Positions 3,959 to 47,843 of a stretch of 64,000 nucleotides of DNA are shown in pieces. Position numbers and translations under genes: made by a program. The notes below the pieces were generated by a model. The model was given only the letters and a program-made list of their open reading frames with translations. It ran no database searches and was not told where the DNA came from. Positions within the stretch are counted from its first letter, which is position 1. Each line of letters begins with the position of its first letter. Source of the DNA: a virus. Taxonomy: Duplodnaviria; Heunggongvirae; Uroviricota; Caudoviricetes. The stretch lies in IMG/VR virus record IMGVR_UViG_3300020045_006153, positions 115,550 to 179,549 of that record; one strand, given 5' to 3'.

Positions 3959-4018
3959 AGTTTGAAGACGACAAGGTTACCTGCACCACAATGTCAAGCA
4001 GGACTTCAATTAGTTAAT

Positions 4019-4093
4019 GGGGGCAGCAGAGGGCTGCGGGTTTGCTTTGCAAGCATACTGACTAGAACGGTTCGATACCGTCGGCCTCCACCA
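4019..4093 (+). tRNA. tRNA-Ala(TGC)
   Basis: G3.U70, loop TTTGCAA, ACCA. Confidence 0.8.
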
Positions 4094-4099
4094 AAGTTA

Positions 4100-4157
4100 C
4101 GGGGCAACAAAGAGCAACTCTGTTAGAGTTCGTACAGCAAGTTAAAATGCCCCGCCA
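4100..4157 (+). ncRNA. Acceptor-minihelix RNA with permuted CAGCAA motif
   Basis: GGGGCA/TGCCCC-G-CCA enclosing AACTCTG-TT-AGAGTTC-GTA-CAGCAA. Confidence 0.65.
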
Positions 4158-4161
4158 ATAT

Positions 4162-4237
4162 GTCCCTGTCGTCTACCTGGTTAGGACGTCAGCCTTTCAA
4201 GTTGAAAAATCGGGTTCGAGACCCGATGGGGACGCCA
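4162..4237 (+). tRNA. tRNA-Glu(TTC)
   Basis: TCAGC-CTTTCAA-GTTGA, GCCA. Confidence 0.9.
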
Positions 4238-8328: not shown

Positions 8329-9057
8329 ATGAAAATCACAGAACTCATAACAGAACGCAGACAACAAAATATATCAGTTGTGTATCACGGTACATCTTCT
8401 AATTTTGTTAGATCTATTTTAAAAACAGGATTAAGTCCAGTGCCTCCAAAACGGTCGTGGGGTGATAGTGATAAGATGGGTGCTGATAAAGAAAGCCTTC
8501 CTGGAATATACTTAACTCCACGATTAGATTATGCTCAAACCGCAGCCAAACAGTCAGTGGAACTTAATGGCGGAACTCCGACTCTTATTACTGTACAATA
8601 CGTATCAGGAAGCGGAGGATTAGATGAAGATAATATCACTGGTATTGTGTGTTACGCTGTTTCAGAAGATTACGATGCATTTATAAAAGATTTTGATCAT
8701 CAATTTTTAGATATAATTAGTCGAGTTAAGGATCGATTAAAGAATACAGCATTGAATAATCGAAGTATTGAAATACTAAAACAATTAGTAAAAGTTGCGG
8801 TTAATATTACTTCAAAAAATTACGAAGAAGTTCAAGGAACTGAATTTCGATCAATATTATCTAATCCGCAGTTTAGACAATTACTGATAAAATTTACAGA
8901 ATCTGTTAAAGTTCACTCATCGGAAAATCCAGATTGGACTTCGGAACACATAAAAGTAACACGCATAATTGGTTTCAGCGGTAAGACGAAAATAGTTAAA
9001 ATCGAAGATTTAAAAACAAAAGCAGTGTACTATGAAAAGCATGAAGTCAGCCGCTAA
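8329..9057 (+). CDS. ART-fold protein, Tpt1/KptA-like first strand
   Basis: VYHGTSSNFVRSILKTGLSP, GIYLT..DYA; N-term MKITELITE. Confidence 0.6.
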   Translation: MKITELITERRQQNISVVYHGTSSNFVRSILKTGLSPVPPKRSWGDSDKMGADKESLPGIYLTPRLDYAQTAAKQSVELNGGTPTLITVQYVSGSGGLDEDNITGIVCYAVSEDYDAFIKDFDHQFLDIISRVKDRLKNTALNNRSIEILKQLVKVAVNITSKNYEEVQGTEFRSILSNPQFRQLLIKFTESVKVHSSENPDWTSEHIKVTRIIGFSGKTKIVKIEDLKTKAVYYEKHEVSR

Positions 9058-12886: not shown

Positions 12887-12976
12887 AAACCCTGTTTACT
12901 ATTGACAGGGTTTCTTATTTGTGCTACAATATATACATACAGCAAGCAATTACTGTATACACGCTCTTTAAAAATT
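12887..12976 (+). promoter_or_regulatory. Terminator hairpin overlapping sigma70 promoter, followed by boxA
   Basis: AAACCCTGT/ACAGGGTTT; TTGACA(12902)-17-TACAAT; CGCTCTTTAAAAATT at 12962. Confidence 0.75.
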
Positions 12977-12989
12977 AGTTAAAATATGT

Positions 12990-13064
12990 GCCCAGGAGAC
13001 CGAATGGGGAGGTAGCGCCTTGATAAGGCGTTTGTAGTCAGATCGAAACTGACTCTGGGTACCA
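12990..13064 (+). tRNA. tRNA-Ile(GAT)
   Basis: GCGCC-TTGATAA-GGCGT, ACCA. Confidence 0.85.
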
Positions 13065-13202: not shown

Positions 13203-13281
13203 GAGTCATGACCCGTAGGACTCGCGTAGTGTAATGGTTAGCACAGCAAAAATCTTTAGGTTCGATTCCTAAGCCTGGCCA
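13203..13281 (+). ncRNA. Scrambled tRNA/CAGCAA-motif hybrid
   Basis: GAGTCATG..AGGACTC, D-arm GTGTAATGGTTAGCAC, CAGCAAAAATC, T-arm, CCA; no anticodon arm. Confidence 0.45.
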
Positions 13282-13344
13282 ATATACAGGACGGTGTGTG
13301 ATGAGTAGCAAATGATGGTTCGAATCCATCCGCAATGAGTCTGC

Positions 13345-13562: not shown

Positions 13563-13639
13563 GCGGATGTAACCGAATTGGTATAGGTACTGGTCTAAGA
13601 AGCCAGGTTTTGAGAGTTCGAGTCTCTCCATCCGCACCA
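13563..13639 (+). tRNA. tRNA-Leu(AAG), A34, short variable arm
   Basis: CTGGT-CTAAGAA-GCCAG, ACCA. Confidence 0.85.
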
Positions 13640-13673
13640 TATACCATAATTATTTTTAACACAAGGAAATGAA

Positions 13674-13901
13674 ATGACACTAGCACTTTGCTCGCAAAAA
13701 GCAGCCGAAATGGTTGGAAACAAGTTTGATCTGGTACTTATTGCCAGTGCACGAGCACGTGAATTGAAGCGTGGATACAAGGCATTAGTTCCTAATCCAA
13801 CTGGTCCTATTGTTACTGCGCTTCGTGAAATTGAAGAAGGCTTTGTTGGCCGTGAATATTTGAAGAAGAAGGTTGCACAGTCGCAATCGAATCGCAGATA
13901 A
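13674..13901 (+). CDS. rpoZ: RNA polymerase omega subunit
   Basis: GNKFDLVLIASARAREL..G..LV....IVTALREIEEG matches omega consensus; AGGAAA SD. Confidence 0.9.
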   Translation: MTLALCSQKAAEMVGNKFDLVLIASARARELKRGYKALVPNPTGPIVTALREIEEGFVGREYLKKKVAQSQSNRR

Positions 13902-14003: not shown

Positions 14004-14093
14004 GCAAGCGAGACTTGGAGTCCGAGGAGTCTTATAAGCTCTTTCCGCCAGATTAGCGGCTTTGAGAGAGTTCGATTCTCTCCGCTTGTACCA
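14004..14093 (+). tRNA. tRNA with TAT (Ile) anticodon and long variable arm
   Basis: GGAGT-CTTATAA-GCTCT; CCGC/GCGG extra arm; short D-arm; ACCA. Confidence 0.75.
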
Positions 14094-15837: not shown

Positions 15838-16009
15838 TTGACAAAGTGTTAAATAGACAGTATAATTAATACATACACTAAGCAGTTAGTGTATAAAATA
15901 TATGTGTTGAGCAATTGCCCACTGTTTTGTGGGATGAAGGTAATAAGAAAACTATTGGATACGTTCATTAGTAGAAATATCTTTAACACATATCGCTCAT
16001 TAAAAATTT
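15838..16009 (+). promoter_or_regulatory. sigma70 promoter with downstream boxA-like site
   Basis: TTGACA(15838)-17-TATAAT; CGCTCATTAAAAATTT at 15994. Confidence 0.65.
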
Positions 16010-19841: not shown

Positions 19842-19870
19842 TTGACACAAGGTAAAACCTATGTTATAAT
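19842..19870 (+). promoter_or_regulatory. sigma70 promoter with GGTAAAACC spacer box (also 22819, 28727, 31177)
   Basis: TTGACA-17-TATAAT, TG extension, conserved GGTAAAACC. Confidence 0.8.
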
Positions 19871-19907: not shown

Positions 19908-20354
19908 ATGAAAAAAGGCGAGATGCTTGCAACAATGCTAGTCATTGCAACGAATGCACATTCTGGTCAATTTGATAAAGGTGGTAACCCCTACATTTTG
20001 CATCCGCTGAAGGTCATGCATTACACTAAGAGTGCAGATGAAGAAATTCAAGTCATGTCTCTAGGACATGATGTAATTGAAGATACCAGTGTAACATATA
20101 CTGACTTGCGTAATGCAGGTGTTAGCGAACGTGTAATTGCAGGAATTCGTTCGCTAACTAAGCAGCCAGGTCAAACATACGAAGAATACAAGGTTAGTGT
20201 TTTTGCTAATCGCGATGCTATGATTGTGAAGATGGCAGACTTGCGCCACAACAGCGATATTCGCCGCCTGAAAGGTGTAACTGAAAAAGACATTGCCCGT
20301 GTTGCAAAATATATGCAATTTTATTCTGAAATTCAAACAGCATTGGCTAATTAA
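19908..20354 (+). CDS. HD-domain protein, RelA/SpoT (p)ppGpp-hydrolase (Mesh1/SAH)-like
   Basis: AHSGQ.DKGGNPYILHP, HDVIEDT, VKMADLRHN motifs. Confidence 0.8.
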   Translation: MKKGEMLATMLVIATNAHSGQFDKGGNPYILHPLKVMHYTKSADEEIQVMSLGHDVIEDTSVTYTDLRNAGVSERVIAGIRSLTKQPGQTYEEYKVSVFANRDAMIVKMADLRHNSDIRRLKGVTEKDIARVAKYMQFYSEIQTALAN

Positions 20355-26585: not shown

Positions 26586-27647
26586 TTGAATAAAATGACT
26601 GAAAGAAAATTAGCAACAATTCGTAAAATTGATAATATCGAACCTATCCCAGGTGCTGATAAAATTGTTAAAGCAACTGTAGGCGGGTGGCAATTAGTAA
26701 CTGCGGTTGACAACTGTTTTAAGATTGGAGATCTTGTTGTATATTGCGAAATTGATTCGTGGATGCCAACTGAGATTGCTGCATTTTTATCTAAGGGCAA
26801 TGAACCACGCGAATACAATGGAGTAAAAGGTGAGCGGCTGCGCACTATGAAAATGCGCGGTCAAATCTCTCAAGGTCTTATTTTGCCATTGTCTATTGCT
26901 ATTGAGAAATTTGAAAACAGCAAGTACGACGAAGGACAAGAATTTTCTGAATTCTTCTTTCCAGGCAACGATGTTACAGACTTGCTCGGTATTCAAAAGT
27001 TTGAACCAGAAATTCCAGCATGCCTAGCAGGCGAAGTAGTTGGATATTTTCCGATCTTTATGCCAAAATCTGATCAGGAACGTATTCAAAATCTTACTAT
27101 CGATTTCGAACAATGGAAGACGCAAGGACTAACTTGGGAAGAAACTGAAAAGTTAGAAGGTGCTTCTATGACTGTGTTTCGCCGTGATGACGAATTCGGA
27201 GTGTGTACACGGAATTTGCAACTTAAACCAAATCCTGATAATTCGTTGTGGAAAATTGCAATACGAGAAAATCTCGAAGATGTTTTGCGCGATGCTGGCA
27301 ATTTTGCATTGCAAGGCGAAATTGTGGGCGCAGGAATCGAAGGTAATATTTACAAATTCAAGGATCAGAAATTTTACATTTACAACATTTACGATATTAA
27401 CAACAGTTGTTGGTTAACTCCTATGGAACGCAATCAGTTCATTACTAAGTACAAGTTACCGCATGTACCTGTGATCGAATCCGCAAAAGTATTGGATACA
27501 CATACTGTAGAAGATTTACTAAAGAATGCCGATGCTAAGGCTGTATTAAATGCTGAACAATGGCGAGAAGGTGTTGTATACAAATGTAATGAACTTCCTA
27601 TCTCATTTAAGGTGATTTCAAACGTATATTTGTTAGGTCAAGCATAA
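26586..27647 (+). CDS. RNA ligase, DRB0094/Rnl2-type with N-terminal OB-like domain
   Basis: IEPIPGADKI, TEKLEGAS, VCTRN, LQGEIVG, EGVVYK, SFKVISN motifs. Confidence 0.88.
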   Translation: MNKMTERKLATIRKIDNIEPIPGADKIVKATVGGWQLVTAVDNCFKIGDLVVYCEIDSWMPTEIAAFLSKGNEPREYNGVKGERLRTMKMRGQISQGLILPLSIAIEKFENSKYDEGQEFSEFFFPGNDVTDLLGIQKFEPEIPACLAGEVVGYFPIFMPKSDQERIQNLTIDFEQWKTQGLTWEETEKLEGASMTVFRRDDEFGVCTRNLQLKPNPDNSLWKIAIRENLEDVLRDAGNFALQGEIVGAGIEGNIYKFKDQKFYIYNIYDINNSCWLTPMERNQFITKYKLPHVPVIESAKVLDTHTVEDLLKNADAKAVLNAEQWREGVVYKCNELPISFKVISNVYLLGQA

Positions 27648-41799: not shown

Positions 41800-43182
41800 A
41801 TGGCACACGATACACAAATTGTACGGTTTGAATTAAACAAAGTAAGTCAATCGTTTTGCCTTGCAAAATGGCAACAAGTAACATTACATCTTCAAACAGG
41901 GCATACTCACAGTTGTCATCACCCAACTACTCATAAAATTCCATTAACTGATCTTGTTAGTAATCCAAGTGCATTGCATAATACTTCTTTCAAAAAACTA
42001 CAGCGTAAGAAAATGCTCGAAGGAGAAAGACCATCTGAATGTGATTACTGCTGGCGTGTTGAAGATAGCGCAGAAAATGTGCTAAGTGACCGAACATACA
42101 AGTCTTCAGAAAGTTGGGCGTGGCCATATCTAGATAAAGTTAAATCATTACCGTGGGACCATGACGTTATTCCGTCATATCTCGAAGTGTCATTTAGTAA
42201 TGTTTGTAATTTTAAATGTAGTTATTGCTCTCCTCAAGTTAGTAGCAAATGGATGGAAGAAATCGAAAGATACGGACCTTATCCAACATCGTCTAAATTT
42301 GGCAACATTCAATGGCTTAAAGATACTGATGCAATGCCGATTCCGCATAAAGAAGAAAATCCGTATGTTGATGCATTTTGGAAGTGGTGGCCCGAAATAT
42401 ATTCTAAACTACAACAGTTTAGAATAACCGGAGGCGAGCCATTAATGTCCAAAGATACATTTAAAGTACTCGATTTTGTAATTGATCAACCAAATCCGTC
42501 ATTAATATTATCTATTAATAGTAATATGTGTGTTCCTGATATACTGCTTGATAAATTTATTGAAAAAATTAAAATTATCGTAAATGAAAAGAAAGTAAAG
42601 CAATTTAGTATTTTTACAAGTTGTGACACATACGGAGCCCAGGCTGAATATATTAGAGATGGGTTAGACTACCAAAAATGGTTATCAAATATACGAAGAG
42701 TGTTAACTGAAGTTCCGGGCTGCACTTTTACAGTAATGAGTACGTATAACGCATTAAGCATTTTTAGTTATGACAAATTTATTCAAGATGTATTATCTAT
42801 AAAAAAAGAATTTGTTACTAACGATTCAAAATATTCTCCTATTTTATTAGACACACCGTACTTAAGATGGCCAGCACATCAATCTATTTTTATATTACCT
42901 GAACATATGTTGATGAATATCAAACATCAATCAGCATTGATGTCTGCAAATTTAGAATCAATTGATAATCCATTTATGGGATTTTTTCAATTCGAAGTTG
43001 ATAAATTCGACAGAATATACGATACTGCACTAGCATCAATCACAACTACTGAAACAACAACAGAACAAAAAGATTTTGTGTTATTTGTAGACGAACACGA
43101 TCGCAGACGAGGAACTAACTTTCTAAATACATTCCCGGAAATGAGTGAACTATATCATAAATGGAAATCAGCATTAACTTAA
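41800..43182 (+). CDS. Radical SAM protein with N-terminal twitch/SPASM-like domain
   Basis: CNFKCSYC, TGGEPL; FCLAKW, SCHH, CDYCW. Confidence 0.85.
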   Translation: MAHDTQIVRFELNKVSQSFCLAKWQQVTLHLQTGHTHSCHHPTTHKIPLTDLVSNPSALHNTSFKKLQRKKMLEGERPSECDYCWRVEDSAENVLSDRTYKSSESWAWPYLDKVKSLPWDHDVIPSYLEVSFSNVCNFKCSYCSPQVSSKWMEEIERYGPYPTSSKFGNIQWLKDTDAMPIPHKEENPYVDAFWKWWPEIYSKLQQFRITGGEPLMSKDTFKVLDFVIDQPNPSLILSINSNMCVPDILLDKFIEKIKIIVNEKKVKQFSIFTSCDTYGAQAEYIRDGLDYQKWLSNIRRVLTEVPGCTFTVMSTYNALSIFSYDKFIQDVLSIKKEFVTNDSKYSPILLDTPYLRWPAHQSIFILPEHMLMNIKHQSALMSANLESIDNPFMGFFQFEVDKFDRIYDTALASITTTETTTEQKDFVLFVDEHDRRRGTNFLNTFPEMSELYHKWKSALT

Positions 43183-47345: not shown

Positions 47346-47843
47346 ATGATTCCAACCACTTACAAATACACAAGTACAAAAGAATATGTAGATGCATTTC
47401 CGTGTGCATATCGTCAATGGAAATCAGACTCTCATTGCAATATGATTCACGGCTATGCATTTAGCATGAAGTTTTACTTTGGTACAAACAATCTCGATGC
47501 GCGTAATTGGGCGGCCGATTATGGCGGACTAAAAGAACTGAAAAAGATCCTTGAATCCCAATTTGATCATACATTGCTCGTTGCAGAAGATGATCCTGAA
47601 ATCGAATTGCTTAAGCACCTGCAAGAAAAAAATCTTGCAAAACTAACAATTCTCCCGCGCCTAGGATGCGAATCGCTTGCTGATATGCTGTACAAGTATG
47701 TCAACGGTGTGTACATTCCGGAAATGTGGGGCGAAGGTGAAGCCAATCGTCTTTGGTGCTACAAAGTGGAGGTGCGCGAAACACAAGCAAACATGGCCTT
47801 CCGAGAAGGGCATCGCGAATGGAATGAAGACTTATTTGCGTGA
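47346..47843 (+). CDS. queD: 6-carboxytetrahydropterin synthase / PTPS
   Basis: C..IHG, DYG.LK, FDH, ET motifs. Confidence 0.8.
   Translation: MIPTTYKYTSTKEYVDAFPCAYRQWKSDSHCNMIHGYAFSMKFYFGTNNLDARNWAADYGGLKELKKILESQFDHTLLVAEDDPEIELLKHLQEKNLAKLTILPRLGCESLADMLYKYVNGVYIPEMWGEGEANRLWCYKVEVRETQANMAFREGHREWNEDLFA

Follow-up and report, generated by a model that had tools for sequence, protein, structure and literature searches.

The stretch of phage DNA analysed here (64,000 nt; the window) encodes, inside a tRNA array, a member of the omega (RpoZ) family of RNA polymerase subunits. This protein belongs to a phage-specific clade and lacks the feature that defines a ppGpp-competent proteobacterial N-terminus, i.e. 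Met-Ala-Arg at a fixed spacing. We favour, with moderate confidence, the view that it is expressed early and replaces the omega of the host RNA polymerase, with a probably weaker binding of ppGpp at site 1 in this lineage. The window corresponds to bases 115550-179549 of a 353,233 bp IMG/VR virus record judged 99% complete, and the structural proteins of the phage are distant kin (~24% identity) of those of RaK2, Serratia phage BF and Erwinia jumbo phages. It is known that phages can modify the host RNA polymerase, inhibit it or replace it. The literature found by our searches does not describe a core subunit homologue supplied by a phage, and includes no paper on a phage omega.

The initial annotation had named the open reading frame an omega gene, and both its coordinates and its identity were confirmed. 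The ATG at 13674 is the sole candidate start, an in-frame TAA being located at 13647-13649 with no ATG, GTG or TTG between the two. The product scored 47.6 bits with PF01192 (RNA_pol_Rpb6; cut-off 26) and 35.1 bits with TIGR00690 rpoZ (NCBIfam; cut-off 23.6). Omega chains were its sole PDB matches in phmmer (V. cholerae 9gdo_E, 7.7e-13; E. coli, ~5e-11), and the phmmer alignment reproduced the core similarities quoted earlier, GNKFDLVL against GNRFDLVL and (T/I)ALREIEEG. The AlphaFold2 model (mean pLDDT 82.4) consists of four helices. The top 50 PDB hits returned by Foldseek for this model were omega chains only (TM 0.72 for E. coli 8tom_K and V. cholerae 9gdp_E), the chains of these two species among the top matches showing 43-48% identity; the ppGpp-bound holoenzyme 4jk1 was also among the matches. 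Family, four-helix fold and the core motifs GN(K/R)FDLVL(I/V)A..RAR and ALREIEEG are thus common to the phage protein and proteobacterial RpoZ (8tom_K and 4jk1_J of E. coli, 9gdo_E and 9gdp_E of V. cholerae). Comparison with IMG/VR homologues gave dN/dS values of ≤0.2-0.3. Synonymous sites were saturated (dS >1.2) at a dN of 0.27-0.47 and the gene is therefore under purifying selection.

Several properties separate the phage omega from its cellular counterparts. It is encoded in a phage tRNA array rather than on a bacterial chromosome, and its 75 residues end in a short basic tail where cellular omegas carry a long acidic one. Ahead of this tail, the segment EGFVGREYLKKK with VGREYLKKK takes the place of EGLINNQILD of E. 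coli and forms part of a G-R-E-Y-L-K-K helix. A search of 5.8 billion proteins yielded 219 relatives with lengths, as called, of 57-104 aa (mostly 66-80). In 136 clade sequences the corresponding motif, G-[RI]-[ED]-Y-L-K-K, is near-invariant (G, Y and L in 135 each, the lysines in 122 and 121), and the alignment columns G56, G59, Y62 and L63 around it are invariant. Motif, short length and short basic tail were absent from the sampled cellular omegas. A maximum-likelihood tree split 134 phage-type sequences from seven cellular gammaproteobacterial omegas with an SH-aLRT support of 99, although the underlying alignment is short and the tool issued a long-branch warning. In a scan whose cellular hits were mostly from Vibrio, owing to the peptide patterns used, the identity of cellular omegas over the matched core did not exceed 47-59% (best tblastn segment). 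By the tree and the saturated synonymous sites, the phage clade is old and separate from the cellular omegas.

The clade is found in uncultured large phages. A profile-guided scan detected at least 401 IMG/VR stretches encoding a relative, some of them on very large contigs (335, 349, 365 and 525 kb). Of the 79 best IMG/VR loci, 64 (81%) have a tRNA no more than 300 nt from omega, and 72 have one no more than 1.5 kb away. The C-terminal motif, the short length and the tRNA-adjacent position of the window's omega are all those of the clade. The ESM Atlas contains clusters with the automatic name omega for which Uroviricota is the commonest known phylum; the gene is therefore present, and automatically annotated, in public viral records. 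Megablast of the omega region against cultured phages gave no match, and tblastn of the protein matched eight records of that collection. Six of these, two of them labelled Salmonella contigs, had the same identity and score, which points to one enterobacterial omega; the other two, 240 kb long and with an annotated rpoZ, are named Acinetobacter phage MD-2021a. No genuine cultured phage with an omega gene was found in the collection by either search. Three omega matches scoring better than the cellular ones come from metagenome-assembled genomes. Two of them are on contigs of 1.5-1.8 kb with tRNAs adjoining omega and are therefore probably mis-binned phage DNA. A 23-kb Haliscomenobacter contig (L023; match at 4001-4201), binned to a Bacteroidota genome, encodes the phage-type G-R-E-Y-L motif behind a long N-terminal extension, has no tRNAs nearby and may be phage or prophage DNA.

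The N-terminus sets the window's omega apart from cellular omegas and from most of the clade. In the alignment, Ser7-Gln8-Lys9-Ala10 of the phage protein match Val6-Gln7-Asp8-Ala9 of E. coli omega, the phage N-terminus being one residue longer. Owing to this offset, Thr2-Leu3-Ala4 stand opposite Met1-Ala2-Arg3, and Asp8 gives way to Lys9. The segment preceding the G-N-R-F anchor is MTLALCSQKAAEMV, 14 residues without an Ala-Arg dipeptide, as compared to 13 residues in cellular omegas. For the cellular controls, 151 Pseudomonadota genomes were used, all of which have an omega, and 27 of the 30 best-scoring loci were readable. Each of these 27 begins with (M/V)AR(V/I)T(V/I)xD, has exactly 13 residues ahead of the anchor and carries Asp8. 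The absence of the MAR motif claimed by the initial annotation was hence borne out. The claimed loss of Asp8 was borne out insofar as a lysine takes its place, but Asp8 is not named as a ppGpp contact in PMC10191844 or PMC13192712, and was dropped as such. The mean pLDDT of model residues 1-10 is 61, and the N-terminal segment is therefore probably flexible.

Within the phage clade, the loss is not general, as an alignment of N-termini revealed. Arg is present at the Arg3-equivalent position in 102 of 134 cluster representatives (76%) and Ala at the Ala2-equivalent position in 87 (65%), while Asp is found at the Asp8-equivalent position in just 13 (10%). N-terminal lengths range from −1 to +7 residues. 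Many members show an exact MAR; others begin with MT(A/S)R, longer by one residue, or with M-x-x-S-R-A-R, longer by four, and thereby keep Ala-Arg. The Arg is missing from about 30 sequences, among them some that begin with MGQ, MEG or MSNQ and some with seven additional residues. At least eight changes of the Arg state can be counted on the tree, of which one or two may reflect mis-called starts; the Arg was lost only in the small subclade of the window's omega plus about six to seven other lineages. This subclade unites the window's omega with four relatives that have come from ENA and Logan assemblies only (P0002-P0004 and P0007; support 89). All five begin MT-(L/K/Q/N)-(A/G)-(L/I)-(C/T) and have lost the dipeptide. 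A metagenome scan for relatives found only clade members more distant than these four, and the MT-x-(A/G) N-terminus occurs in none of the 79 best IMG/VR loci. Loss of Ala-Arg is thus a minority state of the phage clade and a peculiarity of lineages, to be set against invariance in cells. With 76% of the clade keeping the Arg, insensitivity to ppGpp is probably not the reason why phages carry an omega; in fact, extended N-termini mostly keep an internal Ala-Arg, which suggests that most of these phages still benefit from the dipeptide.

The location of the gene inside the tRNA array, as noted at the outset, was verified. It is flanked by a tRNA-Leu gene and an atypical tRNA-like gene (Table 1), and ARAGORN detected 45 tRNAs in the window. 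In Rfam, the atypical gene gave a weak tRNA-Sec match alone (24.9 bits against a gathering score of 47). A 119-nt stretch at 13220-13338 (+) is a near-threshold Rfam tRNA match (28.2 bits against a gathering score of 29) and looks like a tRNA with a large insert.

Table 1. Positions of the omega gene, its sequence elements and neighbouring features in the window
Feature	Position	Strand	Remarks
Near-consensus sigma-70 promoter	12902..12930	+	TTGACA-17-TACAAT, extended -10 TG; 11/12 matches
boxA-like element CGCTCTTTAAAAATT	12962..12976	+	~30 nt 3' of the -10 of the 12902 promoter
tRNA gene not called by ARAGORN	12990..13061	+	Rfam RF00005, 42.2 bits (gathering score 29); first RNA gene of the unit
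tRNA-Leu(AAG)	13563..13639	+	ARAGORN; Rfam tRNA 61.2 bits; ends 34 nt 5' of the omega start codon
Shine-Dalgarno AAGGA	13663..13667	+	6 nt 5' of the omega ATG; read from the sequence
Phage omega (RpoZ) gene	13674..13901	+	75 aa + stop; profiles, PDB matches, fold model
Altered N-terminal segment, codons 1-9 (MTLALCSQK)	13674..13700	+	In place of MARVTVQD; no Ala-Arg
Clade-specific C-terminal motif, codons 55-66 (EGFVGREYLKKK)	13836..13871	+	G-[RI]-[ED]-Y-L-K-K
Atypical tRNA-like gene	14004..14093	+	90 nt, 102 nt 3' of omega; ARAGORN tRNA-Ile(TAT), anticodon position 30
Promoter of alarmone hydrolase homologue	19842-19870	+	Perfect TTGACA-17-TATAAT; consensus match
Small alarmone hydrolase homologue	19908-20354	+	148 aa; just past the tRNA array; 7SMG, Rel/SpoT, phrog_990 matches

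The promoter at 12902 is the nearest one 5' of the omega-containing unit, and its discriminator ATATACAT is A+T-rich. Further RNA genes, and no predicted terminator, are found on the + strand between this promoter and the omega gene. The boxA-like element downstream of it is a weakly supported candidate for an rrn-type antitermination site. The window contains one exact match to GCTCTTTAAMAA and, with one mismatch allowed, five matches against 1.3 expected, a number reached by 1 of 100 shuffles; genome-wide, the boxA core GCTCTTTAA is not enriched (four on the + and two on the − strand, ~2 expected per strand). Along the + strand of the phage record there are 30 perfect promoters of the form TTGACA-N16-18-TAnAAT, including that at 12902, where our own arithmetic from base composition predicts roughly one per strand by chance. 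Six perfect-consensus promoters fall into the tRNA-array region, the last of them, at 15838, downstream of omega. The promoters of the phage combine consensus hexamers with spacers of mostly 17 bp, and their discriminators are all A+T-rich, with a mean of 2.0 G/C per 8 nt; those of the tRNA array show TTGACA-17-TAnAAT elements and A+T-rich discriminators with 1-2 G/C in 8 nt. The 30 promoters span ~29.8-158.7 kb of the record (window 2321 to 43198 and upstream) and represent a very uniform early promoter class; many have the spacer form (A/G)GGTAAAACC(T/A)(G/T)TGT in common, and 13 have the extended -10 TG. T4-type late promoters were considered and rejected, since TATAAATA is not enriched (15 and 11 matches against ~32 expected per strand).

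No beta-prime domain was detected in the 99%-complete phage record. A multisubunit polymerase of the phage's own, which would need an omega, was rejected on these grounds. Together with the 30 perfect sigma-70-type promoters, the missing beta-prime implies that the early genes of this phage depend on the host sigma-70 polymerase and that the phage omega can act only on the host RNA polymerase. Most likely, the omega gene is expressed early, from a tRNA precursor transcript, although the precursor step itself is inferred.

According to the model that we favour, the unmodified host sigma-70 polymerase would transcribe the omega gene straight after infection as part of the tRNA precursor, and RNase P/E-type processing of the flanking tRNAs would then free a short omega mRNA. 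As the entire beta-prime-binding core and the four-helix fold are kept, the product should occupy the site of host omega on host beta-prime. Replacement of a subunit on the host polymerase is the most economical reading. The general role of the protein would most likely be to supply or reshape omega, keeping the polymerase stable and processive while early genes and tRNAs are being heavily transcribed. According to a recent preprint, omega itself makes the polymerase more processive and more resistant to termination (PMC13192885), and this gives a phage with long, heavily transcribed RNA arrays a reason to supply omega that is independent of ppGpp. The conserved G-R-E-Y-L-K-K helix and the short basic tail, both unlike those of cellular omegas, suggest a property peculiar to the phage omegas, for instance tighter binding or a surface for docking.

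Most of ppGpp site 1 is made by host beta-prime. The statement of the initial annotation that N-terminal omega residues form part of it agrees with published work, in which the ppGpp phosphates contact omega Ala2, Arg3 and Val4 (PMC10191844; PMC13192712); the first two of these are missing from the window's omega. The classical site 1 mutant includes a deletion of omega residues 2-5 (PMC10191844; PMC13192712). Like this truncated E. coli omega, the window's omega is without the Ala2-Arg3 contacts to the ppGpp phosphates (PMC10191844), but it differs from it in having substitutions plus one extra residue instead of a deletion. With the Ala-Arg dipeptide lost and one residue gained, a polymerase carrying the window's omega would probably hold ppGpp less well at site 1, and reduced site 1 function is plausible in this lineage. 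The omega-ppGpp contacts are, however, largely main-chain, with the Arg3 side chain moving upon binding (PMC10191844). The effect of N-terminal substitutions is therefore not readable from the sequence, and the substituted N-terminus might still bind.

Site 1 mediates the ppGpp-dependent slowing of elongation, backtracking and transcription-coupled repair (PMC10191844). The expected consequence of a weakened site 1 would hence be less ppGpp-induced slowing and backtracking in elongation, not relief of promoter shut-off; a polymerase with the window's omega may elongate without being slowed by ppGpp.

Another explanation, which we regard as possible but rather unlikely, retains omega as a servant of the host polymerase in assembly, in processivity, in favouring sigma-70 or in docking via the G-R-E-Y-L-K-K helix, denies it any ppGpp role and ascribes the odd N-terminus to neutral drift. 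It accommodates the C-terminal motif of the clade, which is far better conserved than the N-terminus, the repeated changes of the Arg state and the wide range of N-terminal lengths, as well as the main-chain nature of the ppGpp contacts (PMC10191844). The variability at positions 3-6 inside the subclade fits relaxed constraint as well as adaptation. Drift is harder to reconcile with the lack of any variation in cellular proteobacterial omegas, where all 27 have the (M/V)AR start, and with the internal R-A-R that is kept even by phage omegas extended by four residues. The latter indicates that the dipeptide is under selection in most phage lineages, so its loss is unlikely to be without effect.

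The favoured reading can be generalised, more speculatively and with a low probability in our view, by supposing that large phages swap in their own core subunit and that individual lineages tune or abolish site 1 by repeated remodelling of the N-terminus, as the eight or more changes at the Arg3-equivalent position might indicate. Elongation on phage DNA would then be uncoupled from the host alarmone signal, and the phage studied here would be one of the site 1-null variants.

Stringently controlled promoters have a G+C-rich discriminator and a short-lived open complex. The initial annotation proposed that the phage omega displaces host omega and abolishes ppGpp control of such stable-RNA promoters, the tRNA array being transcribed through the stringent response. 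This we consider improbable. The missing Ala2-Arg3, the position of the gene in a tRNA array behind a host-type promoter, and the presence of an alarmone hydrolase homologue and two MazG-like genes in the phage genome would all suit such a role, and polymerase without omega is reportedly insensitive to ppGpp in vitro when DksA is omitted, as Vrentas and colleagues are said to have found in 2005. In E. coli, however, a mutation abolishing site 1 left rRNA shut-off and growth on starvation unaffected, and it is the DksA-dependent site 2 that rRNA shut-off and starvation survival require (PMC10191844). The phage tRNA promoters, furthermore, are by established promoter rules the reverse of the ppGpp-repressed rrn P1 type and do not look repressible by ppGpp; given their consensus elements with 17-bp spacers and A+T-rich discriminators, ppGpp and DksA should not repress them anyway. 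The role of site 2 and the type of promoter thus weaken any mechanism that keeps stable-RNA promoters firing, leaving the narrower elongation version standing. The prevalence of Arg, and often of an exact MAR, among phage omegas also speaks against the proposal. No DksA/TraR-type factor, which would act at site 2, was found in the phage genome.

The hydrolase homologue adds little to that proposal. Its best match is 7SMG, the (p)ppApp hydrolase Aph1 (E 2.7e-24), followed by Rel/SpoT hydrolase domains down to 1e-11; phrog_990 was matched at 3.5e-56. Aph1, the closest solved relative, reportedly hydrolyses (p)ppApp and not (p)ppGpp (PMC10083569), and the phage enzyme might act against alarmone- or tRNA-pyrophosphorylating defence toxins instead of ppGpp. 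A module of omega and alarmone hydrolase was considered but is not supported, as five other omega-bearing phage records, just one of them ≥90% complete, lack the hydrolase. The hydrolase is therefore treated here as a separate feature.

That the phage omega never joins the polymerase, serving instead as a decoy for a host omega-binding factor or defence sensor, which it would titrate, or being a passenger gene captured recently from a host, is very improbable: regulators acting through omega are known, e.g. GafA of the Rhodobacter gene transfer agent (PMC9638019), yet the beta-prime-binding core is the best-conserved part of the protein, the clade is old and apart from cellular omegas, which match the core only distantly, and no near-identical cultured-phage or cellular copy was found.

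T4 Alt and ModA (through ADP-ribosylation), T7 Gp2 and Xp10 P7 are phage proteins that retool the host RNA polymerase from outside; P7 is named in the title of PDB entry 6j9e, which was among the Foldseek matches. The phage omega would share their purpose, an early redirection of the host's transcription enzyme during infection. However, those proteins are foreign modifiers or inhibitors, whereas omega is a homologue of a core subunit and would take that subunit's place. On an otherwise conserved scaffold, the omega N-termini of the clade form a natural series (exact MAR; extended with Ala-Arg kept; Ala-Arg lost), and hence a ready-made tool for addressing the in vivo role of ppGpp site 1, which is still debated. 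Among these variants, a site 1 defect is most likely for the window's omega. At the same time, its sequence context provides evidence against the simple idea that a site 1 defect keeps stable-RNA promoters on.

Some further genes of the window were recognised. Within the tRNA array, an open reading frame at 8329-9057 (+) has a weak match to a PARP catalytic domain (17.6 bits, below the cut-off). The gene at 26586-27647 (+) codes for an RNA ligase that has a PHA02142 OB domain and may act in tRNA repair. A radical SAM protein just under the Pfam cut-off (41800-43182, +) and a QueD-like 6-pyruvoyl-tetrahydropterin synthase (47346-47843, +) together suggest a 7-deazaguanine pathway.
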